64,000 nucleotides of DNA from Centroscyllium fabricii. Its lineage: Eukaryota. The translations under genes and the position numbers were made by a program. Positions 36,555 through 61,108 of the stretch are shown here, in pieces. How positions within the stretch are numbered: the first letter of the stretch is position 1; each line of letters begins with the position of its first letter. The notes under the pieces are model-generated. The model saw only the letters and a program-made list of their open reading frames with translations. It searched no databases and was not told the origin of the DNA. The stretch covers positions 236,964,001-237,028,000 of the forward strand of contig JBNRSN020000008.1 in the NCBI GenBank assembly GCA_051313645.2, in the 5' to 3' direction.

Positions 36555-38287
36555 ATGGCTCAGGGGTGTCAAATGTTATGGAAGAGAGGATTTCAGATTA
36601 TGTGTTCAGTAAGGTGAATCTGACTAAGAAGTGGATTACCGCTCTGTTAAAGGCTGGGCACCCAGTAGACGCTGCAGCTAAGTAGACAGAGGGGAAGGAG
36701 CATAAGAAATCTCTCGAAAAGGCCGTGTGGCTGTGTTGTTATAAGAAGCAGCTCCAGCTTCTAGATGGGCTCCAAGCAGCGAGGTTAAAGGAGCTAGACC
36801 TGGAGGTTCAGGAGAAAGCTCTAGCGGAAGAAAAGTTAGTGATGGCGCTACAGACCCTCAGTCAGGAGAGGGTACAGTTAATAGGGGAGCATAAGGCCCA
36901 ATTGGAGTACCTGCAGTGCCAAGTCACCGAGGCTAAAGGGCATGAGTTTAGGTTACGGGATAAAAGTGCCCGCCTGACAAGGGAAGTCAGGGAACACGAT
37001 GAGAAAGTAAGGGAAGTACAGGCCCGCGAGCAGGGGTTTGAGGATACAGATCACAGATCCTGTCTGGAAAAGATAGAGAAACTGAGCTGGGCCCTCCGGA
37101 AGGCAAAAGGCATGGTATGTCTCGTAAGCCCAAAGGCAGGTCAGGCAGATTTCTTGGGGAATGAGGGTAGGGCCCTTCCAGTGGCCCAAGTAGTGTTGAG
37201 GGACGACCCAGTAGTAAGGGAGGAAACCCTACATCCACCACCCACTATGCCAAGCTTCGGCAAAGTGTGGCACAAAGGGGAGGTGGAAGTGGAGGTGGTG
37301 CGAGCCCCGGAGAGGTCGGGAGCATGGCCCATGTGCCCGGCCCGGCTGCAGAGGCTGGGACCAGCCATTGGTGGTGACCTAGAGGGACCGCTCCAAAACC
37401 AGTTCATAGTGCCTTACAACACGCAGCAGCTGAGGAGTATGGTCAGCCATATCCTGAAGCTATCCCAAAAGGGAGACCCCTCGGTCCATTTCAGGGAGAT
37501 AGAGCAGGCAGCCAGCGTCAATGACTGCGATGACGCTGAACAGGCCAAAATGCTGCTATTCTCCCTGGAGAGCAGCCTCCGCCAGGCCCTCTCTGATGGG
37601 AATAAAAGAGGGCAGAGTGGGTACGAGGAGCTGATAAAGCCATGGTAGAAGCCCTGGGGATGGATGAGGGAAGTCCCTTCTCCCGCGTGGAGAAGACGGT
37701 CCAGCTAACAGGGGAAACTCCGCAGGCATTTGCGGACTGGCCGTGGCCGGTGTACCGGAGAGCTTTTCCAGGGATGCCCAACTGGGCACTCCTGCACGGG
37801 GACATCCTGGCTCACTGGCTCCGTTGCTTGGTGGCGAACAGCCTACCACAAGACCGAGCGAAAGCGGAGGCATGGTTCGACCGCAAGGACCCCAGCAACA
37901 CCGAAGCCGCGGTGATCAGGCAGCTAACTCTGGCCTATAAGAACGGTCGGGGAGCCGAGGCAACCCAGCCAAAGGGAAGGTGCATGAGGCAAGGCCCGGA
38001 CCGGGTAGGAAAGAGTGGCGCCAGGAAGGGACTAATTCTCCCCACCCAAATTGAACTGCTATGGGTGTGGGAAGGATGGCCACTGGCAGAAAGAGTGCAG
38101 GAATCCGTGGAAGGATTCAAGGGGAAAGACTCCCACAGCCCCAGCCCAGCCGGAGGGGGCAGGAGTCCGGTCCACCCAGGTCGAGATACTTTTGGACACC
38201 ATGAGGTCCATATTGTCTGGCCAGGGAAAGGTAGCAATGGCTACCGGCACTCTAATGCCGTCAGCCCCCACCAACCCCCAGCCCTGA
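36555..38287 (+). pseudogene. gag: gag (coiled coil, capsid-like region, CCHC zinc knuckle), disrupted
   Basis: ORFs 36425-36685, 36725-37648, 37642-~37980 and 38051-38287 (CYGCGKDGHWQKEC); ends TGA-CTAG. Confidence 0.8.
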
Positions 38288-39184
38288 CTAGAACAGGCTG
38301 ACTTGCTTGCCATGGAGGGTGCCCGCGCCGGCACTTTTTGGGACCCATTCAGGTCCAGACCTGTGGCAGCGGTCAGAGGTAGGGATGGGACCCAAGTTAG
38401 CGTAGGGGTAGCTTTAACCCCAGACCTTAAGTCCATCCAGGCACAGGACCCGGTCCTGAAAGCTGTTCTCAGCACAGGATAGTAGAGGAACCATATGGTA
38501 CAGCGACCCTCTCTGTAAAAGAGGGCATGCTGTTCAGTGGGGTGGGGGGGGGGGGGGGGCAGTGGGTTGTGCTGCAACCGCACTGGAGGGAATTCCTTCA
38601 GCTGGCCCATGAGGGTCCAGGAGCGGGACACCCCGGGCCTGAGACCACCTGGCAGTGGGTAGAACAGGCGGGATGGTGGCCGGGACTCAGGGAGGACATC
38701 CGCGAGTTCTGTGCAGGCTGTCTCATGTGTGCTGCAAATAACCCTGACCCCCGTAAAAGGAAGGTACCAATGGGACATGTCAGGAGGGTAGAGAGACCAT
38801 GGCAGTCGATCCAGGTCGACTACATTGGGCCCCTACCCACCGCCCAGGGAGGCTTTAAGTCCTGATGGACGTGTTCTCGAAATGGGTAGAAGCCTTCCCC
38901 TGCAAAACTGCCACAGCTCCGGGACTGCGAGGATCCTAGTCCAGGAGGTGCTCTCACGGTGGGGACTGCCACAATATGTGGAGTCGGACCAGGGGAGTCA
39001 CTTTACCGGGCAGGTAATGCAGACTGCCCTTATGCTGCTGGGCATTGAGGGGAAGTGGCATGCAGCTCACAACCCACAGTCATTGGGGATTGTGGAGCGC
39101 ATGAACCGTACCCTAAAGGAATGGTTGAGGAAGGAGACGGTGGACTCACCCCGTAAATGGGCCGAGATCCTACCGTTAGTGTTA
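38288..39184 (+). pseudogene. RNase H C-terminal remnant plus integrase N-terminal and core region
   Basis: EQADLLAMEGA; HHCC finger AHEGPGAGHPG...WWPGL...CLMC; PWQSIQVDYIGPLP; SDQGSHF; GIVERMNRTLK. Confidence 0.85.
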
Positions 39185-42100
39185 CATAAGAAGATAAGAA
39201 CATAAGAAATAGGAACAGGAGCAGGAGTAGGCCAATCGGCCCCTCGAGCCTGCAACGCAATTCAACAAGATCATGGCTGATCTGATCCTAACCTCAAATC
39301 TACTTTCACTCTCCATCCCGCCCGAACCCATGTGATCACCCGGGAGAGGCGAAAAACCAGACAAAAACCCATTGGCCAATTTGGGAGAAATAATCTGGGA
39401 AATTCCTCTCCGACCCATCTGGGCGATCGAAACTTGTCCAGGAGATCACATGGCCGATCTGAACCTAGCCTCATGTCCACTTACCTGCCCGCTCACCGCA
39501 ACCCCTAAATCCCTTTACTTCCAAGAAACTGTCAATCTCGGTTTTAAATTTATTCAAAGTAGTAGCTTCCACAGCTCTCTGGGGCAGCAAATTCCACAGA
39601 CCTACCACCCTCTAAGTGAAGAAGTTTCTTCTCATCTCAGTTTTGAAAGGGCAGCCCCTTATTCTCAGATTATGCCCCCTAGTTCTAGACTCACCCATCA
39701 GTGGAAACAACCTCACCGCATCCACCCTATCAAGCCCCTTCACAATCTTACATGTTTTGATAAGATCACCTCTCACTCTTCTGAACTCCAATGAGTAGAG
39801 GCCCAATCTACTCAACCTTTCCTCATCTCCGGAATCAACCGAGTGAATCTTCTCTGAGCTGCCTCGAGAGCAAGTGTATCCTTTCTCAAATATGGAAACC
39901 AAAACTGTACGCAGTATTCTAGATGTGGCCTCACCAATACCCTGTATAACTGCAGCAGGACTTCCCTGTTTTTATACTTCATCCCCCTTGCAATAAAGTC
40001 CAAGATTCTATTGGCCTTCCGGATTACCTGCTGTACCTGTATACCAACCTTCTGTGTTTCATGCACCATGACTCCTGTAACGAAATCTGTTGTCTGTATA
40101 TATTCGTTTTGCACTCATGTATATTGTCCTCCCCCACTGTGTATAGTTTCACTTCCTATTTCCTGACTAAACCTGGGAGATTCCAGGAATTGGCTTTGGC
40201 TCTGCCCCTGGCTCCGCTTACATAAAGAACCCAGTTCCTGTGTGACTCATTCCTGTGAGGCAGCCGACCCATCGAGATGTGAGCTCTAATTCTTAGTGAT
40301 TAAAAGCCTATCTGTTTAAGTCTATAACTTCTAGTTTTGCAGTTATTGAAGGCACATCAATTTTAATCACTATGAATACTAGGATGGATTGACTCCTAAA
40401 ACCAGAACATCTTAACTTGGATCCACATTCTGGTGAAGCATCAAATCAATTTGGACACTGGCTCAGATGCTTCAAACTCTTCACGGAGGCCGCATCCGCT
40501 AGCGAGACAGAGAAACTGAGTCTACTGACTACTCGCATAAGTCATCGGACTTATTCGCTCATCCGGGACGCTGCCTCTTACACGGAGGCCATTGCTAGCC
40601 TGAAGGCCCAATACCAGAGGCCGGTAAACGAAGTGTATGCCAGACATCTGCTGGCTACACGCAGGCAGCGACCAGAGGAATCAACGGATGACTTTCTACA
40701 GGTCCTAAAGGACCTGGTCCGGGACTGTAACTGCAAGGACGTGATGGCCAACGTGTACTCTGACGAATTGGTCCGCGATTCCTTCATCGCAGGCCTCAAA
40801 TCAAATTATATCCGGCAGAGACTGCTGGAGCAGGAGGCCCTGGATTTAAAAGGGGCAGTGGCCACTGCACGATCGCTGGACGTGGCCCAGAAAATCTCTG
40901 ACTCCTATTCTTCCGGCCATGCGGCCCTCACCGCCTCGTGCACGCCGAGGGGGCCGCCTTCTTGGAATCAGCCACCTTCCCCACCCAGGTCTCAGGCTAG
41001 CTCTACGTCGCCGGAGTCCCCACACAGAAATCTACCCAGGAGTCCTACTACAGCATTAACATCTCGAGGCCCGAAATGCTACTTCTGCGGCCAGGGCAAG
41101 CATCCCAGACAATGTTGCCCAGCGAAGGACGCTACATGCTTCAAATGTAAGGAAAAGGGGCATTTTAGCAAAGTCTGCAGGGGGAATCCGATTTCCAACT
41201 CCGTCACTGCCTTGTGCGTGCCGTGCGTGCCACCATTTTGGGATTGGCTAGCTTGCCTCGACTCAACGGTCGCCCAGGGCCCAACAGTGGCTTCGATCAC
41301 GGTGGATCAATCCAGGCCACACCCGTTGACAAAATCCATGATGGACATACAGGTAAACGGGAACTTAACGAAATGTTTATTTGACTGTGGGAGTACTGAG
41401 AGCTTTATCCACCCTAGCCTGGTATGTCACCACTCATTAACGGTAACCCCCACACGGACCAAAATTGCTATGGCTCCTAAGCCCCACACTTCGGACATTT
41501 CGGGCTACTGTGTGGTAACTCTGACTGTAAGAGGCACGGACTACAAGGATTTTAAACTCCTCGTGATGCCAGAACTCTGTGTTAATGTAATCTTGGGCCT
41601 GGACTTCCAGTGCCACCACGAAAGTGTCACACTAGCATATGGCGGGTCCCAGCCACCACTCACAGTCTGTGGCCTATCAACCTTAAAAATCAGCCTGCCC
41701 TCTTTATTTGCAAATCTCGCCCCAAACTGTAGGCCCATAGTGACCAAAAGTAGACAGTACAGCCTGGAAGACAGACACTTCATCAAGGCAGAAGTGGACA
41801 GACTCCTGCGGGAAGGCCTTATTGAATGCAGTACCAGCCCGTGGCGGGCCCAAGTAGTCATAGTTAAAAATAGCGAAAAGAAAAGGATGGTAATCGACTA
41901 CAGCCAGACTGTTAATATTTATACCCAGCTGGACGCCTACCTTTTACCCCGCATATCAGAAATGGTCAACCAGATTGCACAATACCGAGTCTTCTCGACT
42001 ATTGACCTCAAATCCGCGTATCACCAGCTCCCCATTAGAACGGAGGACTGCCCATACACTGCCTTTGAGGCGAACGGGCAGCTCTACCATTTTCTCAGAG

Positions 42101-42786
42101 TGCCCGTCGGGGTAACAAACGGGGTCTCGGTTTTCCAATGCGAGATGGCCCGCATGGTTGACAAGAATAAACTGCAAGCTACCTACCCCTATCTGGACAA
42201 TGTCACTATCTGCAGGCACAACCAGCGAGACCACGATCTAAATCTAGCGAGATTTTAAAAAACTGCCCAAAGGTAAATCTAACCTACAACGAGGACAAAT
42301 GTGTCTACAACACAACCAGTCTCTGTATCCTCAGCTGCGTGGTGGAAAGTGGGGTAATTGGGCCAGACCCTGACCGATTACGCCCCCTAAAGGAACTGCC
42401 CCTGCCACACAATCACAGAGCCTTAAAAAGGTGCCTGGGATTTTTTTCGTATTATGCTCAATGGTGCCCAATTTCTCCGACAAGGCCCGACCCCTCATTA
42501 AATCGACGTCCTTCCCACTATCAGCTGAAGCTTGGGCAGCCTTCACCAGTATTAATCAGGATATTGAAAAGGCTGCAATGTGTGCAGTGGATGAAAGCAT
42601 TCCCTTCCAAGTCGAAAGCGATGCGTCAGACTTCGCCTTAGCCGCGACCCTCAATCAGGCTGGAAGACCTGTGGCCTTCTTCTCCCGAACCCTTCAAGGA
42701 CCTGAAATCAGGCACTCTTCTGTAGGGAAGGAGGCACAGTCTATAGTGGAGGCAGTGCGGCACTTGAGACACTACCTCGCCTGGTA

Positions 42787-43183
42787 GTAGGAAGACATGG
42801 TAGCGCAGTGGTTAGCACTGCTGCCTCGCAATAAGGAGCTCCTGGGTTCGAATCCTGCTTGGCCCAGGACCTCTCTGCGTGGAGTTTACATGTTCTCCCC
42901 GTGTTCATGTGGGTTTCCTCCGGGTACTCCGGTTTCCTCCCACCACCCAAAGACGTGCAGGTTAGGTGAATTGGAGATACTAAAAAAATTGCCCATGAGT
43001 ATGTGTGTGAGATATAGTTCTTAGAGTTGGGGGTGTCAGGGGGGATATAGTTCTTAGAGTGGGGGGTGTCAGGAGGATATGGGGGGTGCTGGGTTGGGAT
43101 GATCAGCTATGATCTCATCAAAATGGCGGAGCAGGCTCAAAGGGCCGAATGGCCTACTTCTGCTCCTACCTTCTGTGTTTCTG
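42787..43183 (+). mobile_element. tRNA-derived V-SINE variant inserted in Gypsy A RNase H
   Basis: GCGCAGTGGTTAGCACTG...GGTTCGAATCC head, CR1 tail, TSD TGGTA. Confidence 0.85.
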
Positions 43184-43314
43184 TGGTAAACGTTTCACCC
43201 TGCTCACCGACCAGCGGTCGGTGGCTTTCATGTTTAATAACAAACAAAGGGGGAAAATCAAGAACGACAAAATACTCAGGTGGAGAATCGAACTATCCAC
43301 GTTCGACTATGATA

Positions 43315-43875
43315 CAGGTTGAGCACCAGTAATCCAGCACGAGCGGGACCAGGCCCGTGCCGGGAAAGTGAAAAAAACGGCAGAATGAATTCGGTCAGTG
43401 CGCATGCGCGCACCATTCAAAATGGCCGCACGCATGCGCACAACTTTGGAAATGGCCGCCGAACGTCCGTGCTGAGTATCAGCTGCGGTTTGTGCCTCCT
43501 GATGACGGCCTGCAGGCTGCTTCGGGAAACCGCACGCTTCACCATGGCGGGCGCTCGGGACTCGCACATTCAAAACGCGGCGCGAGCCGTCGCGCCCTGA
43601 CGCCACAAAAGGCCCGGCTCGTCCGGCGGCCGTTTTTAATGATCTGCGCATGCGCTCGCCGTCCGGCGGCGCATGCGCAGATCATTCAAAACATCCGGCA
43701 GCCATTCTGAATGATCTGCGCATGCGCTCGCCGTTCGATGGCGCATGCGCAGATCAGTCGCCGAAGCCTCGATCGCGGCTGCCATTTTGCGCATGCGCAG
43801 GGCAGTCGGGGCAATTTATACTGGACCACTGAAGTTGTCGGCATTTCGGGGAACGGATTACTGGTGCTCAACCTG
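43315..43875. mobile_element. MITE family 1 inserted in Gypsy A
   Basis: TA|CAGGTTGAGCACCAGTAATCC ... GGATTACTGGTGCTCAACCTG|TA; removal restores FDYDIMYRPG. Confidence 0.92.
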
Positions 43876-46184
43876 TATTATGTACAGGCCGGGAGCCCTT
43901 AATGAACCCCCAGACACCCTATTGCGGGGAATGTGTGCCAGCATTCACACGGACAAATTACAGGGACTCCACGATGACCTCTGTCACCCAGGGGTCACCC
44001 GATTATTCCATTTTATAAAGTCCCGCAATCTGCCCCACTCCATCGAGGATGTCAGAGCAATGACCAGAGCCTGTCGCATCTGTGCAGAATGCAAGCCTTG
44101 TTTCTACAGGCCTGACCATGCACACCTTATCAAAGCCACATGGCCATTCGAGTGCCTAAGTTTGGACTTCAAGGGGCCCCTTCCCTCTGCTGACCGTAAC
44201 GTATACTTCCTCAATATCATTGATGAATATTCTCGCTTCCCCTTCGCCATTCCATGCCCAGACATGACCAGTGCCATGGTCATCACGTGTCTCGGTAATC
44301 TATTCTGCATGTTTGGTATGCCGAACTACATACACAGCAATAGGGGGACGTCCTTCATGAGTGACAAGCTGCACCAGTTCTTGCTCTCGAAAGGAATAGC
44401 CACTAGCAGAACCAGTAGCTGCAATCCTCGGGGGAATGGGCAAATGGAAAGAGAGAATGCAACTGTCTGGAAGGCTGTCACGTTAGCCTTAAAGTCAAAA
44501 GGTCTTTCGACCTCCTGCTGGCAGGAAGTCCTCCCAGACGTGCTCCACTCCATAAGGTTGCTGTTATGTACTGCCACCAACGCTACCCCCCACGAAAAGA
44601 TTTTTGTTTTCCCCAGGAAATCCACCTCGGCATATCTCTGCCCGTGTGGCTGATGTCTCCGGGGACAGTACTATTGCGGAAGCACGTGAGAGGCCATAAA
44701 ATGAACCCCTTGTGGAAAAGGTACAGCTCCTCCATGCAAACCCTCAGTACGCCTACATTGAGTACTCTGATGGGCGAGAGGACACTGTTTCCATAAAGGA
44801 CCTCGCTCCCTCGGGGAGCGGAGAGAACGATGGGAGACTACCCGATGAAGGCCAACATTACAAAGAGACAAGTCTACCCGACGAAGGCCTACATTACAAA
44901 GAGACAGGATACCTGGAGGTGTCAATACCCAACTTTAACCTGGGGGGCATTGTAGATGACCTGGAAGACACTGCGGAGGCCCGGACAGCGGAGGAACCAG
45001 AATCCACTCACCTAGAGCCACCCCAACCGGCTTTGTGCCGATCACTGAGAACTGCAAAACCTCCTGACAGACTCACTTATAACAACTTTTACTAAACACC
45101 AACCCGATGGACTAAATCTATAGAAGGGGTGAATGTAATGAAATCTGTTGTCTGTATATATTTGTTTTGCACTCATGTATATTGTCCTCCCCCACTGTGT
45201 ATAGTTTCACTTCCTATTTCCTGACTAAACCTGGGAGATTCCAGGAATTGGCTTTGGCTCCGCCCCTGGCTCCGCTTACATAAACAACCCAGTTTCTGTA
45301 TGACTCATTCCTGTGAGGCAGCCGGCCCATCGAGATGTGAGCTCTAATTCTTAGTGATTAAAAGCCTATCTGTTTAAGTCTATAACTTCTAGCTTTGTAG
45401 TTATTGAAGGCACATCAACCCCCAGATCACTTTGCACTTTAGAACTTTGAAGTTTCTCTCCATTCAGATAATAATCTGCTCCCTGATTTTTTTTGCCAAA
45501 GTGCATAACCTCACACTTTCCAACATTATATTCCATCTGCCAAATCTTTGCCCACTCACCGAACCTGTCTCTGTCCCTTTGCAGGTTTTTTATGTCCTCC
45601 TCACTCACTGCTTTCCCTCCCATCTTAGTATTGTCGGCAAACTTGGATACGTTGCACTCGGTCCCTTCTTCCAAATCGTTATTATAGATTGTAAAGAGTT
45701 GGGGTCCCAGCACTGCCCCCTGCGGAACACCACTAGTCACTGATTGCCAATCCGAGAATGAACCATTTATCCCAACACTCTGTTTTCTGTTAGATAGCCA
45801 ATCTTCCACCCATGCCAGTATATTACCCCCAATCCTGTGATTTGTTATCTTGTGCAGCAATCTTTTGTGTGGCACCTTGTCAAATGCCTTTTGGAAGTCC
45901 AAATACACCACATCCACTGGTTTCCCTTTATCCACCCTGTTTGTTACGTCCTCAAAGAATTCAAGCAAATTTGTCAAACATGACTTCCCCTTCGTAAAAC
46001 CATGCTGACTCTGTCCGATTAAATTATGCTTATCCAAATGTCCTGTTACTGCTTCCTTAATAATGGACTCCAACATTTTACCAACCACAGATGTTAGGCT
46101 AGCCGGTCTATAGTTTCCAGCCTTTTGTCTGTCTCCCTTTTTAAATAAGGGCGTTACTTTAGCAGTTTTCCAATCCGCTGGGGA

Positions 46185-47293
46185 TTGTTAATGGGGATCC
46201 GGGCCAGCCAGTCCAAGAGTACGGGGTATTCCCCGTATGAGTTAATGACTGGTAGGGTTATGCGGACCCCCACCCATGTGCTAGCGCTGCTGCTTACGGA
46301 GGGGCAACTCTGGGAGGTCAACCGGGACAGGTTCGCCCGAAACCTTTATGAGCACCTAAAGCAGGTCTATGGGTAGGCAGCTGGGAACATGGGGAGGCAG
46401 CATCGGAGAAACCGATTGCTGCTGGAGCCAAAAGGGCACCAAGAATGGGAGGTGGGAGACCAGGTCATGGTTAGAAACTATGCCCGAGTAGGGAGTTTGG
46501 AACCCTTGTACATGGGGCCCTACAGCATTGTAGATAAGGCCAGCCCCATGGTGTCCGCCGTGAAAATGACCCAGCGTACAAAGTGGTTCTATGTCAACCA
46601 GTGCAAGCTGTTCAAGCCAGGCAAGGCTAAACAGCTCACTGGTCAGGGGAGTGAGGGTAGAGATCCTCAGCCCGACGCTACGGTTCCTGTGATGTGCTTG
46701 AAGGGAGGGGCCACCCCACTGGTAAAGTGGGACACTCCTCCAACTTGGTGGGAGCTAGATAGTGGGGAGGAATCAGAGAGCATATTTCCGCCCTTGGCTC
46801 TGTCACAGTGGAGGGGCAAACCGAGGGCAGTAGCTCCACCCTCAGCTCAGATGCAGAAGGGGAGGGACCCGAGGATAGGAACCCTGCCCCTAGCTCTAGT
46901 GAGGAGAAGGAGGGACCTGAGGTCAAAGAGCCCGCCCCGGACCCTGTTGTGGGACCAGGGGGCGGAGACTCTCAGGTCACAGCCACAAGCTGCAGCGGGT
47001 CACGTGTCACAAACCTGAAGGTAGGGGGAGCAGGACTGAAGGGAGCAGCGGCCCAGGTTAAGAGGTCGCTGGCCAAGAAAGCCCAACCCGTCCTCAGGAG
47101 ATCCTCTCACACGCCCAAGCCCAAGAAGGTATGGTCACCCGTCAGGTATGTGACCAGGACAGTTCCCCGCATAAGGGGAATGGTAAAAGGCAGAGGCCCC
47201 CAGCCAGCAGCCACGGGCAGCGAAGTGGCCACAGGCAAGGACAGTGTGGCCGCGCCAGAGGCAGTGGCGAGCCGCAGTCCAACCAGGGATTAG
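46185..47293 (+). pseudogene. Integrase C-terminus (GPY/F motif) with a long low-complexity extension
   Basis: STGYSPYELMTGR; VGDQVMVR...LEPLYMGPYSIV; Ser/Glu/Pro-rich extension ending in an LRRS-type basic motif. Confidence 0.8.
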
Positions 47294-47522
47294 CCTGGCC
47301 ACTCGGAGACAGGCGGCGAATTGTATATAGTTTAGGTTTTTAAGTTTAGTGTTAAGGTTTGTGTTAAAGTTAAGTAAGGTAGTTTAAGTTAAGAAATAAG
47401 TTGTTCCAAGGGACAAGTTTTGGGTTCGAGGTCGAGGGACCCAACCACACTTCACCCAAGCCAGAGAATCTCTGGGAGACCTGGCTGCATGCATGTTCTT
47501 CTTTGGTCTGTTACAGGAAGGA

Positions 47523-49817
47523 ATGGGGATGAGAAGATTCGTGATCCTGCTCACCCTAGTCGGGATCAGCGCCGGGAAGCGGGGTGATGTGGAGGATTCA
47601 CATGTTTTCGGGTGCTCGGGAGAGAGAGCTCCCGTGGTGATTGGCGGAAGCAAGGAGCGAGGCCCAGAGGGACCTGCCATCTACGCCCACGAGGGGAGAT
47701 GGCCTGGGTGGGTGGGATCGAACTCCACCCGGTACTCCAGTCAGCCCGGATTCACTTACGGGGAGGCTTCCCTCCTCTGCCCCACAGTAAAGGTTGTGGC
47801 TTCACGCATCGGAGTCGTAGTGGGAAAGCATGTGTGCCCACTAACAGATGGTGGTGGATTCGGAAACTGAGGGCGGACATCCAACATCAACATGAGTAGA
47901 GATGGATAACGACACCCACAGGACGGTCACGACGACCATGAACAGTACTAGTGTGTGTTGGGACAAATGGTGGGAATCCGAGCAAGGGATTTATGTATGT
48001 ATGTGGGGGTCAAAGAAGGTCTGCCCTACAGGTTTTTCCGTTGTTTTCTCTGCCGCCTGGCAGGACCAGGGAAAAGGGATTAATTGGGACGCCCACCTCC
48101 ACACATGTGTAGAACTCGACAAAGTAGCCCCAGTTAGAGCAACTGAACTTGTGGCGCATACCCACAAGCCCCTGCCTACGACTCAGCCCACTGGGAGGCC
48201 CCGGGAATGGTGCCCCGCCACCACCAGGGGACCTGGGCATGGATTGGTACTAGTACCCACGGATCAGGTACTGTACCAGGGTGTACACTACGCGGTGGCC
48301 TCGGTGATCCTGAATTTAACCGAGGTGCATTTGCCAAAGTGGTGCCCCAGGGAGTCAGAGCAGTTATACCAGGCCCTCTTAAAGGACATGTTTAGGCACT
48401 TTTACAAGTTCAATTTATCCAGCGGGAATCGGACTGCACTTTACACCACACCACGCGAAGTTTTGGGTGGGACAGGGAGACAAAGAAGGGGCATTTTGGG
48501 TGGTGCATTCACCGCGTTTAATACTGGGACCTCTGTCGTCAACACGCTGGATGATATAGAGCTGCAGACCCTGATTAACAGTTTAAAAATGCAGTTAAAG
48601 GCGATTCTCATGGATGAGAACAAAGTAGTAAGTTCGGAGTTGCATGTGGACCAGGCAATGACGGTCCATTTAGAAGAGATAATAGCGCAGTTGGAGAAGC
48701 ATGCCAAAACGGTAAATGCTCTCATATGGGAGGACAGAAACGCGCCTGACCAGGCGGTGCAGAATGAGGCGTGTGTACTGTACGGGGCATGGTTACTGGG
48801 CAAGGGCTGCAGTAATCCGGAGGACCTGAAACAGGGTTTGGTCCGCTCCTGGATCAGTAACAAACACCTCGCCGCCCTCCTCCCATATGAGAACGCATTG
48901 AGCCCGTGCCAGCTCCAACTAGCCTCCGAAGCTTATCCAGTTCCCGTGGACTGTGGTCGGTCAAACCACGCAGTCAAGGGGGTGGTTGTTCGGATGCGGG
49001 TTATGGGAAGGGCAGCCCGATCCGCACTGGTGTACAGGATGGAGAACATTAGAGTGATCCAAGGGGGTGCGCACATTCGTTTCGCAGCGGTCCCACCTTA
49101 CGTCATCAAGTGGGAGCACGAAATGACAGGCACGGACCTTGCAGGGTGCCGGAGCTGGGGAGCACACATAATCCTGTGTCCCCAGCACTTGAATGCCTTT
49201 TTAAGACCGCAGTGTGGGTTCAGAGCTGCTGGAGCAAAGCCTATAAATTGCACCATGGAGGCGATGGCACACAGCCACTTTCCGCCTCAGGTGGCATATA
49301 TAGGTTATGGGACCTACTGTGTCACCACCTGGTGTGCGGTGAGTCACAGCAGCTTCTGTTTTAAACCCGAGTCTGAAGTTCAAGTGGCCAGGAGTGAATT
49401 GTCCCCATCCCGGAGCCCTCCACTGTCCACCTCACTGTTCAAGAGAATGTAACCAGTTTGTTGCAGTTTGTAGCCCATTTCAGCTACAAGATTCCCCCTC
49501 TCCCTGAACACCTCACAAAACTCCTCAAAGCCGTTGTTGTTTTGCAGAAACACTTCTATACCTTGGAACAAAAGACGATAGAAATAGGGTCTAAAATCTT
49601 AGACATAGTAGTTCCACCATGGTGGGACCTCTTCGATAGCATTGAAGTCCCATCATGGATCCGGCTGGCTTCCCACATCCTGGTGGTATGCCAGCTCAGC
49701 ATCGTGCTGTACTTAGTCTGTGTACAGTGTAGGGGGAAGGGTCGGTTCTCAGAGTTCCGAAACTACACAACCTGGCAGGGGCACTATGAGGAAGCAGAAG
49801 GATATACACCCGTGTAA
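47523..49817 (+). pseudogene. env: env-like class I fusion glycoprotein, frameshifted
   Basis: Splice acceptor TTCTTCTTTGGTCTGTTACAG (ends 47516); signal peptide MRRFVILLTLVGISA; furin site RQRR (48478-48489) then fusion peptide GILGGAFTAFNTG; heptad repeat; Cys-rich domain; TM LASHILVVCQLSIVLYLVCV. Confidence 0.85.
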
Positions 49818-52212: not shown

Positions 52213-53129
52213 TGGCCATGGTTAACTCTAGGTTACCCAGTATTCTCATAGCAACCCTGCTAGATTTTCAGTCTCCAGCTCCACTGATACCAAAACATCT
52301 CGGAATGTAGTGGACAAAAACAGCTTCAGTGCAGCTGGATTTCAGAGAAGATAAGGTTGATAAACAGGCCATCACTACCTTGGTTTCAAACCCTTTATCT
52401 CTCTTTGGAATGTTCACTCAACCTTAGAAGCTAGCATTGTTTATCACAGTAAGCTTTTCCCGAGAAAGTAATGAAAAGTCTGGTAGGAATCACAGTACGA
52501 GGGAGGGAACAGATAAGCCTACAGCCTTTTGCACAGACATGGAGTCTGAGATGATCTTATTCACAAGATAAGATGGACCCAGTGTCTGAAAACATAGATG
52601 TTATGTTAAATGTCCACGAACACCTCAAGGTGGTTCCCAATATTGAGTGACTAACCATGCCAACCAATAAGGTGGCAATGGTAGTGACGCTGTTTGTACG
52701 GGCCCACCCACCTTTGTAACCCAAGGGGGTGCCTATCGAAAGGTATATCTATGTTTGTATGCTGTATTTTCTTTGAGAGGATAGGTCCAAGTCTGATGAG
52801 GCTGACCTCTCTTTCCCTTGCGCACAGATCTTTCAGGATATTTGTAATAAACTTTTACTTTATATTCAATTCCGTCTCCATCTAGAGTTTCTCTTAAATT
52901 CGAATCTAACAGTCTGCTTTAGGAACGGGCACTAATGTTTTATGAAGGCATGCGGATTTCTTTCAGTGGCTAACTACTTTATTTCCGCAGTAGTCTACTA
53001 ATAGCCAGATTGAGAGGCTGGCTGCGGGCAGGTAGGCTTGCAGCCACATGGAGGGTTTGTGTGAGGGCTGGGCCATTAAATGGATCGGGGACGGTGGGGG
53101 GGCGGCGGGAGGGAGTGGCGAGGACCAAG

Positions 53130-54240
53130 GGTTGGGGACCGGAGAAAGGATTAGGGAGAAGTGGGGGCAGGAGGACCGGGGGTTCGGAGGGAAGGATCGG
53201 GAGAGGTGGGAGAATGATGACGGGAGCCAGGGGAAGGATCGGGGGCAAGTGGGGGCAGGAGGACCGGGGGCCAGGGCAAGGATCGAGGGAGGTGGGGGAA
53301 CGAGGACCAGGGGAAGGATCGAGGGAGGTGGGGGAATGAGGACAGGGGGTCAGGGGAAGGATCGGGGGAGGTGGGGGAACTAGGACCAGGGGAAGGATCG
53401 GGGGAGGTGGGGGAACGAGGACCAGGGGAACGATCGAGGGAGGTGGGGGAACGAGGACTGGGGGTCAGGGGCAGGATCGGGGGCAAGTGGGGGAATGAGG
53501 ACCAGTGGAAGGATCGAGGGAGGTGGGGGAACGAGGACCAGGGGAAGGATCGAGGGAGGTGGGGGAATGAGGACCAGGGGAAGGATCGAGGGAGGTGGGG
53601 GATCGAGGACCAGGAGCCAGGGGAAGGATCGGCGGGGAAGTGGGGGAATGAGGACTGGGGGCCATGGGAAGGATCGGGGGGAAGGGGGGAATGAGGACCG
53701 GGGGCCAGGGGAAGGATTGGGGGCAAGTGGGGGCAGGAGGACCGGGGCCAGGGCAAGGATCGGGGGAGGTGGGGGAACGAGGACCAGGGGAAGGATCAAG
53801 GGAGGTGGGGGAACGAGGACAGGGGGTCAGGGGAAGGATCGGGGGAGGTGGAGGAACTAGGACCAGGGGAAGGATCGGGGGAGGTGGGGGAATGAGGACC
53901 GGCGGCCAGGGGAAGGATCGGGGGGAATGAGGACCGGGGGCCAGGGGAAGGATTGGGGGGAAGGGGTGTAATGAAGACCGGGGGCCAGGGGAAGGATCGG
54001 GGGAAGTGGGGGAATGAGGTCCGGGGGCCAGGGGAAGGATTGGGGGGAAGGGGAGGGATCAGGAGGAAGTGGGAGAATGAGGACCAGGGGAAGGATTGGG
54101 GACCAGGGGAATGTTCGGGGGCCAGGGGAAGGATTGGGGGGAGTGGGGATCAGGAACCGGGGGAAGGATCATTGGGAGATGGGGTATTGGGGGCCAGGAG
54201 AAGGATTGGGGATCTATGCCAGGGGAAGGATCGGGGTGGG
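53130..54240 (+). repeat. G-rich minisatellite, ~35-bp unit like GGGGAAGGATCGGGGGAGGTGGGGGAACGAGGACCA
   Basis: Degenerate tandem units read directly. Confidence 0.9.
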
Positions 54241-54990: not shown

Positions 54991-55951
54991 ATTCTAGTCC
55001 TCTAAATAGAAAGGCCAGTGTTCCATTAGCCTTTTTGATTATTTTCTGTACCTGTTCATGACATTTTAAGTGGAGGACCTCAAATTTGCTTACATTGAAA
55101 TCCATTTGCCACAGTTTTGCCCATTCACTTAATCTATCAATATCCCTTTGTAATTTTATACAGTCATCTACTCTGCCTGCAATGTTGCCTATCTTTGTCT
55201 TATCGGCAAATTTGGATATTTGAGTTTTTATGCCATTAATGTTAAGTCGTTTATAAATATTGTGAATAGTTGAGGCCCCAACACAGATCCCTGCGGGACA
55301 ACAACAGTCACATCCTGCCAATTAGAGCACCTGCCCATTATCCCAACTGCCCGTCTCCTGCCGCTCAGCAAATTTCCTCACCGGGACAATAATTTTCCCT
55401 CAACTCCATGGGCTTCTAGTTTAGTTAATAGTCTCTTATGTTGGACTTTATCAAATGCCTTCTGGAAGTTCATATAAATAACATCCTGTCCACTACTTTA
55501 GTCACCTCTTCAACAAATTCAATCCGGTTTGTCAGGCATGACCGACCTTTCACAAATCCATGCTGGCTCTCTCTGATCAACTGAAAATTTTTGAGGTGTT
55601 CAGTCACCCTATCCTTAATTATAGATGATGCCTAATCAATAACTTCAAAAGACTAGAAGTTGAGGAGTGAACTATAGGCTTTTATTAACTAAGACATGAG
55701 CATGCCCATGCTAGTCGACTGATCCCAGAATGATTGGGGGAGGGAGACAGTCACCTTTATACCTGGGTCCGAGGAGGAGGAGCCGCAGGCGGGGTCAGCA
55801 CAGGCATGCCCGGACAAGCTACACATGAAAGGCTATGTACATTACAGCAGGTCACACACAATGCATATGGTTACATACATATATATACAGTGGTTTACCA
55901 CATTCACCCCTTGCTTAAAACAAAGTCCGGCGGGGTAATTTAGGGCAACCA

Positions 55952-58900
55952 TCAGAGGTTCAGTCTCTCGGGCGGTTTGGTCTGCCTTGTAGATCGACGT
56001 ACAGTTGGCGGTGGAGTCGGCGGCGGTGCTTGTTCCGACGCGGGGTCCCTTACGATTACGGTCACTGGTGCGCTCTCCCATTCGTCGTCCGGCCGGCGGG
56101 TGCATAGCGACAGAATTGGGGGCCATACCGTGCTGCTTGCAGGTGCTGGGTGGACGTACCGTGGTGCTGGTGCCTCGAGGGTGGCGGTGGGGGGGAGGGG
56201 TGCAGGCTGGCGGGTCATGGTGGTCTCGGGGGCACCCGAGGGTGCCAGGTCCTTGATGGACACCGTGTCCCAACGCCCGTCAGGGTACGCCACGTAGGCG
56301 TACTGGGGGTTGGCGTGGAGGAGACGGACCCGTTCGACCAGGGGGCCCCTCACGTGCTTCCGGAGCAGGACGGGTCCTGGGGACGATAGCCATGACGGCA
56401 GCGAGGTCCCTGAAGCCGACTTCCTGGGGAAGGCAAAAAGTCGTTCGTGAGAGGTGGCATTAGTGGCCGTACAGAGAAGTGACCTAATGGAGTGGAGCGC
56501 TTCGGGGAGGACGTCCTGCCAGCGGGAGACTGGGAGGCCCTTAGACCGCAGGGCTAAGGAGGTCATGTCCGGGCAGGGGATAGCGAAGGGGAAACGTGAG
56601 TACTCATCAATAACATTGAGGAAGTACACGTTGCGGTTAGAGGAGGGGAGGGGCCCTTTAAAGTCGATGCTGAGTCGCTCAAAGGGGTGGGTGGCCTTTA
56701 TCAGGTGTGCCCGGTCCGGCCGAAAGAAGTGCGGCTTGCACTCTGCACAGACCCGGCAGTTCTTGGTCATGGTCCTGACCTCCTCGATGGAGTAAGGGAG
56801 GTTGCGGGACTTAATGACGTGAACAAATCTGGTGACCCCCAGGTGACAGAGGACGTTGTGCAGGGTCTGGAGGCGGTCTACTTGTGCGCTGGCACATGTA
56901 CCATGGGATAGGGCATCTGAGGGCTCATTGAGTTTCCCGGGTCGGTACAAGATATCATAATTGAAGGCGGAGAGTTCGATTCTCCACCTCAATATCTTGT
57001 CATTCTTGATTTTGCCCCGCTGCTTGTTGTTGAACATAAACGCGACTGAGCGTTGGTCAGTCAGCAGGGTAAATCGTTTACCGGCCAGGTAGTGCCTCCA
57101 GTGTCGCACTGCTTCCACAATGGCCTGGGCCTCCTTCTCAACGGAAGAGTGTTGGGTTTCGGGGCCCTGGAGGTTGCGCGAGAAGAAGGCCACGGGTCTG
57201 CCCGCCTGGTTAAGGGTGGCGGCCAGGGCGAAGTCGGACGCATCGCTCTCCACCTGGAACGGGATGGATTCGTCCACTGCGTGCATCGCGGCCTTTGCGA
57301 TGTCCTGTTTGATGCCGCTGAAGGCCATGCAGGCCTCTGCCGACAGGGGAAAAGAGGTCGATTTAATGAGTGGGCGGGCCTTGTCCGCGTAGTTGGGGAC
57401 CCATTGGGCATAATAGGAAAAGAAGCCCAGGCACCTTTTCAGGGCCTTGAGGCAGTGGGGGAAGGGAAGCTCCAGGAGGGGCGCATGCGGTCCGGGTCGG
57501 GACCGATGACCCCATTCTCCACAACACAGCCGAGGATGGCGAGGCCGGATGTCCTGAATACACATTTGTCTGTGTTATAGGTCAGGTTCAGGGTTTTGGC
57601 AGTGTGGAGAAATTTCTGGAGGTTGGTGTTGTGGTCCTGCTGATCGTGGCCGCAGATGGTGACATTAGCCAGATACGGGAAAGTGGCCCGCAGTCCGTAC
57701 TGATCCACCATTCAGTCCATCTCCCGTTGGAAGACCGAGACCCCGTTATTGACACCAAATGGAACCCGAAGGAAGTGATAGAGGCGGCCGTCTGCCTCGA
57801 AGGCAATATAGTGGCGGTCCTCTGGGCGGATGGGGAGCTGGTGATACGCAGATTTTAAATCGATGGTCGAAAAGACCCGATACTGCGCGATCTGGTTCAC
57901 CATGTCCGCTATGCGGGGGAGGGGATACGCGTCTAACTGCGTAAACCGATTAATGGTCTGACTGTAGTCGATGACCATTCGGTGCTTGGCTTTGGTCTTT
58001 ACAACCACTACCTGGGCTCTCCAGGGGCTATTACTAGCCTCGATGACCCCTTCCCTCAGAAGCTGTTTCACCTCCGACTTGATAAAGTCTCTGTCCTCGG
58101 TACTGTAGCGCCTACTCTTGGTGGCGACGGGCTTGCAGCCCAGGGTGAGGTTGGCGAAGAGTGAGGGAGGGGCGACCTTAAGGGGCGAGAGGCCACAGGT
58201 AGTGCGCTGTGGGCACTGTGTGGGGCGCTGGTTGCTGACCGTGAGCGGGGGAAGGGGCCCACCGTATCCCATTGTCACGCTCTGGAGATGGCATTGGAAA
58301 TCAAGGCCCAGCAGCAGAGGAGCGCAGAGCTGCGGCAGCACGAATAGCTTAAAATGTTCGAAGTTTACACCCCGCACTGTCAGGGTCACTACGCAGCGAC
58401 CGCAGACGTCCGCTGATTCGGACCTCGAAGCCATTGACATTTTTTGGCTTGCCGGTGTTACTGTTAGGGAGAAGCGCTTTACCGTGTCTGGATGCACAAA
58501 GCTCGCCGTACTCCCGCTGTCGAAAAGGCAGTCCGTAGTGCGGCCATTCACCTGCACCGACATCATCGATTTGTTGAGCGGCTGTCTCTTGTCTTGGTCG
58601 AGGGTAATTGAGGCCAGAGTCGGGTCCGTCGGGTCGGTGGAGGGGTCTGGGGCCTGGTCCCAAGATGGCGGCTCCCGCTGCCCCCACGCGGCGGGCTGTG
58701 TTGAAGATGGCTGCGTCCAAGATGGCGCGGGCTCCCACGCGGCGGGCTGTGTCCAAGATGGCACTGCCGGCTGTGTCCAAGATGGCGGCACACACGGGCC
58801 ACATGCGGCGTTGCCGGGTTTGGGGGTCGATTGCGCTGCCGCTCTGCATACCTTAGCGTCGTGGCCCTTCTTCCCGCACTTGAAGCAGGTCGCGTCCCTT

Positions 58901-59589
58901 GCCGGGCAATTCCGTCTGGGGTGCTGGGCCTGGCCGCAGAAATAGCATTTCGGGCCTTGCGAGGTTATCGCCGCGGTCAGCTCGTCCACGGGTTGCGATG
59001 CAGCTGGCTGTGTCCAAGATGGCGGCATCCGCGATGTGCCCGCATGGTCAGGGTTGTAGGCGGCCATATTATGGGACGCCAGGTCCAGCGAGCTCGCAAG
59101 CTGTACCGTCTCCTGCAGGTCCAGGCCATCCTTCTCCAACAGTCTCTGCCTGATATAGTCTGACCTGAGGCCGGCGACGTAGGTGTCTCTGATGAGGGTC
59201 TCAGCGTGCACGGCGGCCGACTGTGCTTTACAATCGCAGGCCCGGCAGAGGACTCTCAGCGCTCGCAGGAACTCCACGCTCGATTCCCCGGGTTGCTGCT
59301 TTTGGGTGGCCAGGAGGTGTCTGGCATAGACCACGTTAGGTGCCCGGGTATATTCGCTCTTCAGGGTTCTGACCGCCTCGTTGTAGGACGTAGCGTCCGC
59401 GATGATCGAGTACACCTGAGGGCCCACCCGGGCGTTGAGGAGGCGCAGTTTGTCCCTGTCCGTCCGGACGATCGCTGCGGAGGCTTCGAGGTACGCCTCA
59501 AAGCAAGAGAACCAGTGTGTAAAAGTGTTAGGGGCACCTGGCGCTTGGGGATCTAGTTCTAACGTCGCGGGTTTCAGCATTAGCTCCAT
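55952..59589 (-). pseudogene. Gypsy B gag-pol (stop at 57712, frameshift ~57480, integrase core deletion)
   Basis: ORFs 57712-59589, 57439-57711 and 55952-57565; CCHC knuckles, DSGS protease, RT, RNase H, integrase. Confidence 0.92.
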
Positions 59590-59607
59590 GATGAAAACTT
59601 AGTTATT

Positions 59608-60459
59608 GGGCCCTGTTTTCCTGTGGTCCGTTTGCCGTGGGTGCGCGCTCCTGTGCACCCGCGGCGCACGCGCACGTAATTTTTTTATTTTTTTTTACGT
59701 CAATTTCCTATTAAAAAAAACGTCTTCGGGTGCTGCGTAGGGGTTTGGCTTTTGTTGGTGCGTGACCAGCCACGCCCCCACAGATCCCTAATTTAAATAA
59801 GAAACGCCCCCCAGATCCCTAATTTAAATGACGAGATCCCGAGTCGGACCTTAGTGAGAGCAGGGAAGTGCGGAGCGGCAGCAACAGACTCGCGGGGAGC
59901 AGCGCGGGGGCACAGCAGCAGCTCAGAGGAAGAAACGGATGGTAAGTCAACCATTTTTTCCTCTTAGATTTTTTAATTTTTTTAATTAGCTAGAGAGTTA
60001 AAAATTGCAGAAATTTAACTTTAAAAATTAGCGATTTGAAACAGGTAAATTAACTTAAAATCGGATTTGTTAAATTTTTTTAAAAACTTTAACTTAAAAA
60101 TTTAACGCTACCGATCTGGCCACACTACTCCCCAAAACTGTAAAAAATTAAAATTAAAGTTAAAAAATTAACTTACCTGCTTCAAAAACTAAATATTCTC
60201 CCTCTTACTCCTGGTTTTTTCGTGGGCAGCTTGTGAGCCAGTTGCACACGGAATCACTCTCTAAAAATCACCCGTTCTGACAGGAAATCGTCAGTGCAAG
60301 GTCAGTGCAAGGTCTTCCTGCGTTGGGTGCTGAAGGGCCTTGCCCATCAGCACAGGAAATTCCCGTTCGTGGGAATCCCCCGTGTTGCACCCCCACGAGG
60401 CATTTCTGACCCCCCTTCGTGGGGGTGCAGCTCCTCTGGAGCACAAGAAAACAGGGCCC
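59608..60459. mobile_element. MITE (GGGCCCTGTTTTC TIRs, ATT/AAT flanks; PIF/Harbinger-superfamily-like) inserted in the Gypsy B PBS
   Basis: GGGCCCTGTTTTCCTGTG ... CACAAGAAAACAGGGCCC. Confidence 0.8.
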
Positions 60460-61108
60460 AATAAAATTGATGCCGAATCAATAACTTCAAAAGACTAGAA
60501 GTTGAGGAGTAAACTATAGGCTTTTATTAACTAAGACATGAGCATGCCCATGCTAGTCGACTGATCCCAGAATGATTGGGGGAGGGAGACAGTCACCTTT
60601 TATACCTGGGTCCGAGGAGGAGGAGTCGCAGGCGGGGTCAGCACGGGCATGCCTGGACAAGCTACACATGAAAGGCTATGTACATTACAGCAGGTCACAC
60701 ACAATGCATATGGTTACATACATATATATACAGTGGTTTACCACAATAGACTCGAGCAATTTCCTGACAACAGATGTTAGGCTAACTGATCTATAATTCC
60801 CTGGTTTCCCTCTCTCGCCATTCTTAAAAAGTGGAGTGACATGTGCAATTTTCCAATCTAAATGGATGTTTCCTGAATCTAGAGAACTTTGGAAGATTAT
60901 TGTTAGGGCATCTGCAATGTGCTCACCTACTTCCTTTAAAACCCTGGTATGGAAACCATCTGGCTCTGGGGATTTGTTACTCTTTAGTGCCATTATTTTC
61001 TTTATTCCTGTTATTTTACCTACGTTCATTTTATTCAATCTCTGTCCCTGATTCAGTATTAGTTTCTTTGGGGTTTTCAGCATGCTATCGTCTTCTTCTA
61101 CTGTAAAT

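Follow-up and report, generated by a model that had tools for sequence, protein, structure and literature searches.

An LTR/PBS duplex that covaries across a clade of non-chromovirus Gypsy elements points to tRNA-independent self-priming

Organization of Gypsy A and its sister element

Gypsy A, which lies at positions 40076–45417 of the 64-kb window (the whole stretch of Centroscyllium fabricii DNA that was analysed), is a decayed non-chromovirus Ty3/Gypsy element. It displays the features by which Ty3/Gypsy (Metaviridae) elements are recognized, with LTRs bounded by TG...CA, a target-site duplication, a polypurine tract and a protease, reverse transcriptase (RT), RNase H and integrase encoded in this order (Table 1). 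The two LTRs are 97% identical. As for the coding region, it is interrupted by a stop at 40390–40392, by more stops and frameshifts, and by two nested insertions. The insertions are found in pol, at ~42785–43185 and ~43320–43820. One is a SINE-like piece with a LINE-type tail that is common in the window, and the other is a GC-rich palindromic repeat composed of GCGCATGCGC units, also present at ~5090, 16350 and 22950.

A sister of this element, Gypsy B, occupies the opposite strand of the window. An insertion of ~0.86 kb bounded by terminal inverted repeats (59606–60461, minus strand) interrupts the primer-binding site (PBS) of Gypsy B, and the PBS is uninterrupted in other family B copies. 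Elsewhere in the window, a G-rich minisatellite with 36/43-bp units spans 52979–54200, and the long open frames at 36686–38301 and 46377–49452 have no Pfam match at E 0.001.

Table 1. Coordinates of Gypsy A, Gypsy B and their features in the window
Feature	Position	Strand	Remark
5' target-site duplication, ACTCC	40071–40075	+	Seen in the sequence; 3' copy ACCCC at 45418–45422, 4/5 the same
5' LTR of Gypsy A, 284 bp, TG...CA	40076–40359	+	
TATA-like box TACATAAAG, predicted promoter	40219–40227	+	30 nt upstream of the initiator A
TCATTC initiator-like motif	40247–40252	+	Fits TCAKTY; predicted start is A 40249
LTR arm, predicted 3' end of the self-primer	40289–40305	+	Complement of the PBS; ATTAAA inside at 40299–40304
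GCCT, 5' strand of the short second helix at the predicted cut	40306–40309	+	Partner AGGC at 40350–40353
Small U5 hairpin, ATAACT...AGTTAT	40324–40346	+	Arms 40324–40329 and 40341–40346
PBS position	40361–40377	+	1 nt past the LTR; without TGG; reverse complement of the arm, 16/17
gag-protease-RT-RNase H-integrase region, broken	40384–45082	+	
Polypurine tract ending GGGGTGAA	45122–45133	+	Gypsy B tract ends alike
3' LTR of Gypsy A	45134–45417	+	
Second arm copy, in the 3' LTR of Gypsy A	45347–45363	+	Without a PBS partner downstream
Gypsy B, sister family	55626–60745 (5' end approximate)	−	
Gypsy B arm	60535–60522	−	
Gypsy B LTR end; PBS	60468; from 60466	−	
Gypsy B gag ATG; 3' LTR	59589; 55902–55626	−	

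The PBS of Gypsy A pairs with its own LTR

The 5' LTR of Gypsy A is followed by a single A (40360) and then by TTTTAATCACTATGAAT. The initial TGG, complementary to a tRNA 3' end, by which a tRNA-primed element is recognized is missing, and no tRNA-type PBS is found at the site, as the initial annotation had claimed. Its central observation is also borne out: the 17-nt segment at the PBS position is the reverse complement, at 16 of 17 positions, of an ATTAAA-bearing stretch of the same LTR (hereafter the arm), the single mismatch opposing T at 40293 to T at 40373. When the LTR was shuffled 300 times with dinucleotide composition preserved, the best 17-mer match averaged 9.95 and never exceeded 13. 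Apart from the PBS itself and the arm in each LTR, the window contains no match of at least 14/17. Gypsy A therefore shows the published mark of a self-primed element, a complement of at least 10 nt to its own 5' LTR that starts 0–5 nt past the LTR.

The duplex is present in both the minimum free energy (MFE) and the centroid folds of Gypsy A, and its first 10 pairs have a mean pair probability of 0.99. Since shuffled sequences fold about as well as the whole 161-nt region (z −0.9), the evidence lies in the specific duplex and in its covariation, rather than in overall stability. The small U5 hairpin to which attention had been drawn is indeed present. It is not the feature found across families, however, which is a short helix at the 3' end of the arm.

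Predicted transcription start, poly(A) signal and second helix

The LTRs of families A and B are unalike apart from a common arrangement upstream of the arm. In family B, a TATAAAG is found at the same 30-nt distance from the A of the initiator (Inr) as the TATA-like box of family A, and this A lies 40 nt (family A) or 38 nt (family B) from the arm. Variability among copies is lowest in the Inr, with values of 0.010 and 0.004 in families A and B vs. 0.025 and 0.015 in U3. A start ~40 nt upstream of the arm, as predicted from this shared TATA-like/Inr arrangement, would probably place the arm inside R, so that the suggestion made to this effect for Gypsy A appears sound. Of the 14 family representatives, only 7 have the TCAKTY initiator (as defined in PMC3601003) before the arm, at distances varying from −52 to −131, and the start site is consequently not pinned across the clade.

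Of 13 families, eight have AATAAA or ATTAAA at the 3' end of the arm, and three others have GTTAAA there. The L074/L102 elements keep an exact 15-nt duplex without A(A/T)TAAA, while the arm of L132 is damaged. A search for poly(A)-tailed retro-copies that might map the 3' end gave one match, vs. one in the control.

Directly past the arm, most families have RCC, and a helix of 3–6 bp is possible. This second helix reaches 3–6 bp in all 13 anchored families, with a mean of 4.4 vs. 2.9 in shuffles (combined p 0.0017), and it is significant by itself (p < 0.05) in 3 of the 13, five of the anchors having been set by hand. It is compensated in L061 and L075, where GCC/GGC is replaced by ACC/GGT, and its pair probability in Gypsy A is 0.44. 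Together, these observations lend modest clade-wide support to a second helix starting at the predicted cut.

Arm and PBS covary within the host genome

The 7.2-Gb host genome contains thousands of candidates for each of the two families. We examined the best-scoring copies (110 loci of family A, or 105 once duplicates were removed, and 129 of family B), together with 63 pattern matches and 60 neighbours of two variant copies. Families A and B1 differ at two positions of the arm, both of which are mirrored in the PBS. Within A1, one site is polymorphic, and the 61 copies with a complete arm and PBS are distributed as A/T 37, T/A 13, T/T 11 and A/A 0 (arm/PBS), which corresponds to a strong association between the two sides (Fisher p 3.8e-7). 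No gag marker was linked to either A1 allele above an r2 of 0.08. The T/T mismatch of Gypsy A at 40293/40373 belongs to a recurrent class, seen in 11 of the 61 A1 copies, while the A/A mismatch is absent from all 61, where ~8 would be expected if the two sides were unlinked. Two copies, L004 and L016, have common gag variants yet different arms, which indicates that some A1 copies are recombinant.

In family B, the variable arm triplet is GTT, GTG, GCG or, rarely, GTC, and the PBS changes along with it, defining subfamilies with the arm/PBS combinations GTT/AAC, GTG/CAC and GCG/CGC. At the main variable site, the counts are T/A 106, G/C 9, G/A 8 and T/C 1. The GCG subfamily is matched in 5 of 5 copies, and the neighbours of the two GTG copies are all matched at the variable site (60 of 60), with 54 of the 60 perfect over 14 nt. 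In six copies (L186, L217, L236, L237, L251 and L312), the arms of the 5' and 3' LTRs carry different subfamily alleles. Such disagreement within one element points to intermolecular strand transfer or to later recombination.

Compensation is not seen everywhere. Rare PBS variants at three other positions are compensated in 0 of 31 cases genome-wide (33 loci, two of them without an arm), most of these uncompensated variants probably reflecting decay after insertion. At the known variable position, among the first 30 of 41 matches, compensation is found in 15 of 20 copies with G, in 2 of 6 with C (one without an arm) and in 0 of 4 with A, and the G cases fall mostly in older subfamilies. The two C/C copies have only three rare variants in common over ~1.1 kb, two of which are the paired bases; compensation in this pair is suggestive, yet it represents one lineage.

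The duplex is conserved across the clade

We assembled a metagenome sample of 80 loci found via their RT, 42 of which have a mappable gag start and 40 of these enough upstream DNA. The duplex was sought without choosing an LTR end, by comparing the 45 nt before gag with the preceding 130 nt. An exact complement of 11–19 nt was found in 27 of the 40 loci, representing 9 of 12 groups, while the longest complements averaged 5.8–7.4 in shuffles (maximum 12) and reached 5–8 inside gag. The letters of the arm are unrelated between groups. The exact-match test failed in three of the 12 groups, L070, L114 and L136. L136 nevertheless keeps a 15-bp helix that includes G-U pairs, and L114 is degenerate. 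As for L070, it resembles a deletion derivative of the L068 family.

The position of the duplex is as constant as its letters are variable. The automatic search detected the duplex in 9 of the 14 representatives, and in all 9 it begins 1 nt past the CA of the LTR, an LTR end that is backed by the 3' LTR in 6 of these 9 families. In most families, the gag ATG follows within 0–10 nt of the duplex. The first 10 pairs have probabilities of 0.92–0.99 in 9 of 13 families, with loops of 35–54 nt.

In a quick RT tree, these elements form one clade on a long branch (SH-aLRT 99). The clade comprises 11 locus representatives, Gypsy A and B of the window and 40 homologous proteins, four distant rows falling outside, in a tree that included no labelled chromovirus. 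Among named homologs, compared at the protein level, the nearest belong to sharks and rays, and others come from a sea cucumber, crustaceans, spiders, nematodes and cnidarians. Together, these findings show that the duplex is a real, covarying feature of the whole clade. The initial annotation had staked its reading on the complementarity being conserved across the family, and it is kept and covaries in family and clade alike.

Several leaders have further peculiarities. In L075, the arm/PBS region is tandemly duplicated downstream of the LTR (~130–260). The leaders of L103 and L104 contain, upstream of the arm, a GTGAGT...TTTCAG segment of ~37 nt that resembles a tiny intron, and a pyrimidine tract with CAG is found in the leaders of several metagenome families.

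Proposed priming mechanism and its alternatives

An LTR element needs a primer at its PBS position. Since the duplex lies in the register of a primer site, tRNA-independent self-priming is the best reading of our findings. Of the two alternatives that had been offered for Gypsy A, a priming mode without tRNA is thus the one that we favour, and a stem whose sole role is to hide the poly(A) signal is not. We consider it fairly probable, judging from sequence features, that the element primes itself with its own RNA, the primer being internal and cut in the leader just past the poly(A) hexamer. Transcripts would begin at A 40249 of the TCATTC initiator. Pairing of the PBS with the arm, which lies 40 nt further on, would close a 54-nt loop, and the short second helix would form at the 3' end of the arm. 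The RNase H of the element would then cut at 40305/40306, by analogy with Tf1, to give a predicted primer of ~57 nt, the last 14–17 nt of which would be paired. Minus-strand strong-stop DNA (~55 nt) would copy 40359 to 40306 only. A poly(A) site lies 15–30 nt past its hexamer, and in the 3' LTR the strand jump would rely on the ~20 nt that separate the two as a functional repeat. Masking of the 5' poly(A) signal would probably be a side role of the duplex.

In Tf1, a copied PBS is present in about half of the cDNA (PMC11042837). If the PBS is copied here as in Tf1, changes in the arm might be written into it. Such copying might be expected to give compensated rare variants at many sites, and the 0 of 31 seen at three other positions speaks against it. 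The 13:11 split among A1 copies with T in the arm fits such templating of the PBS, and stepwise change and recombination fit it equally. Mosaic copies have arm/PBS mismatches in both directions, and they do not place the strand-transfer point. More tentatively, it is quite possible that a pan-animal clade of non-chromovirus Gypsy elements evolved self-priming independently. The duplex would there combine a mid-R primer, a mask of the 5' poly(A) signal and a jump repeat of ~20 nt, and the primer would be copied into the next PBS, making changes in the arm self-compensating.

The main rival to an internal primer, which we regard as unlikely, is canonical self-priming of the Tf1 type from the RNA 5' end. 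Transcription would in this case start at the 5' end of the arm, and the primer would be the first 14–17 nt of the RNA. The duplex does fit the in silico criterion for a self-primer (PMC6317226), and the helix at the 3' end of the primer resembles one of the duplexes of the Tf1 pretzel. On inspection, however, neither A nor B has a TATA-like motif ~30 nt before the arm, whereas a TATA-like box and an Inr 30 nt apart are found ~40 nt further upstream in both of these unalike LTRs. We are more doubtful still of a primer provided in trans or from the other end of the RNA, i.e., a short LTR transcript (for example, from solo LTRs) or the arm in 3' R, trimmed at the arm. The arm precedes the poly(A) site and would thus be present at both RNA ends and in any short LTR transcript, which together with the shuffling of PBS and arm alleles on similar backgrounds is what makes such a source conceivable. 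However, the fold in cis is very favourable, its loops are always short (35–54 nt), and cutting 3' R would be expected to destroy the landing sequence of the first strand transfer.

A stem that mainly hides the 5' poly(A) signal, with priming left to an agent that the sequence does not reveal, is quite improbable. The poly(A) hairpin of HIV-1 is an example of a stem with such a role, which would also account for the hexamers that end the arm in most families, and for the presence of a partner only past the 5' LTR, where the 5' signal alone would be masked. Yet hiding the signal does not require the exact 1-nt start past the CA of the LTR in every family, and no alternative primer site is found between the LTR and the gag ATG. 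The fixed start in nine families, together with the 15-nt duplex of L074/L102 that has no hexamer, leads us to favour self-priming over this role. It is highly improbable that the primer is a host tRNA fragment or a small host RNA, the match to the LTR being secondary. There is precedent for half-tRNA priming in Copia lineages (PMC6317226), but the letters of the PBS are wholly different between families and track their own arm even among the subfamilies of a single genome, which makes a conserved host RNA unlikely because host RNAs would not follow. Moreover, a search of 40000–40500 against Rfam gave no tRNA or snRNA match, its two weak matches being to miRNA hairpins (E 0.36 and 0.76).

We also considered a primer built by splicing and, on inspection, rejected it for family B, where a candidate junction offers the PBS 11 nt of pairing, fewer than the 14 nt of the unspliced arm. 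In family A, the candidate introns are shorter than 45 nt.

Significance and comparison with known systems

Self-priming has been shown experimentally in Tf1 of fission yeast, and is otherwise tied, in the literature consulted, to chromoviruses and a few plant lineages. By comparison with these systems, the mechanism of Gypsy A is likely to be a variant of Tf1 self-priming, with a primer predicted to be cut from inside the leader. If true, self-priming would be a common priming route in animals, probably with a separate origin. A separate animal origin would bear on whether hairpin priming preceded tRNA priming, a question raised in PMC3601003. An internal primer would also mean that the cutting step is independent of the RNA 5' end. 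In addition, the self-priming signature offers an explanation for why PBS-based annotation misses such elements.

In Tf1, the PBS is paired to the first 11 nt of the RNA, which RNase H separates from the rest by cleaving between bases 11 and 12 (PMC7175516), the primer lying within a structure of three duplexes (bioRxiv 2022.12.06.519325). The group used for comparison consists of Tf1 and Tf2 (S. pombe), Tj1, Tosmo1-3 and Tcry1, together with the Tf1/sushi chromoviruses. Gypsy A has in common with Tf1/sushi elements the PR-RT-RH-IN order and a PBS that pairs with its own 5' LTR (PMC7175516, PMC4600332), and with Tf1 a possible extra helix beside the primer duplex (PMC7175516, PMC4600332, bioRxiv 2022.12.06.519325). 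In contrast to Tf1, the duplex is 14–19 nt long instead of 11 and ends on a poly(A) hexamer, and the arm is predicted to lie ~40 nt inside R instead of at the RNA 5' end. Furthermore, unlike in the Tf1/sushi group, the gag ATG follows the PBS almost directly.

Self-priming has been predicted from the same LTR/PBS complementarity in the plant elements Tcn1 (Gypsy) and TAR (Copia), the latter being a prediction outside Tf1/sushi (PMC6317226). Both differ from Gypsy A in superfamily or clade and in their hosts, and the accessible text of PMC6317226 gives no position of the arm with respect to the transcription start. In fungi, GalEa elements of the Copia type that carry a Conserved Hairpin Site likewise lack a tRNA PBS and have, where the PBS would lie, a hairpin that covaries (PMC5445492). 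In that case, however, the partner in the hairpin is downstream of the LTR, and the accessible text reports that its authors found no complementary LTR sequence (PMC5445492).

Compact metazoan Gypsy clades (CsRN1, Mag, Cigr-1, Tor2 and MolGy) were compared by their descriptions rather than by labelled sequence. The elements described as CsRN1 in fish are alike in being ~4.3–4.5 kb long, with LTRs of 150–300 bp and a gag missed by domain scans (PMC11117352). The accessible parts of PMC6238403, PMC8556966 and PMC11117352 contain no mention that we could find of how these clades are primed. A search by RT motif for a labelled member of our clade found none in the supplements and full-text literature covered, the ESM Atlas returned unnamed gag clusters, and a search of viral contigs found no relative. 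The full-text literature, taken mostly without subscription papers and with Repbase and GyDB entries outside its scope, yielded no account of such a signature in an animal Gypsy clade outside the chromoviruses.

As for classification, neither Chromo nor SH3_Tf2-1 was detected at E 0.05 in the integrase tail of Gypsy B or in the homologs P0017, P0033, P0042 and P0043, three of these four homologs possibly lacking part of the tail. Because neither a chromodomain nor a Tf2 SH3 was found, we do not class Gypsy A as a member of Tf1/sushi, despite the similar priming proposed for it. The RT-RNase H of Ty3 matches only at E 1e-14. Both Chromo and SH3_Tf2-1 were found in the distant P0077, and the only chromodomain-bearing match is distant (E 3e-9). 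P0077 itself is an LTR polyprotein with a chromodomain, in which a Dam-like adenine methyltransferase domain sits between RNase H and integrase.
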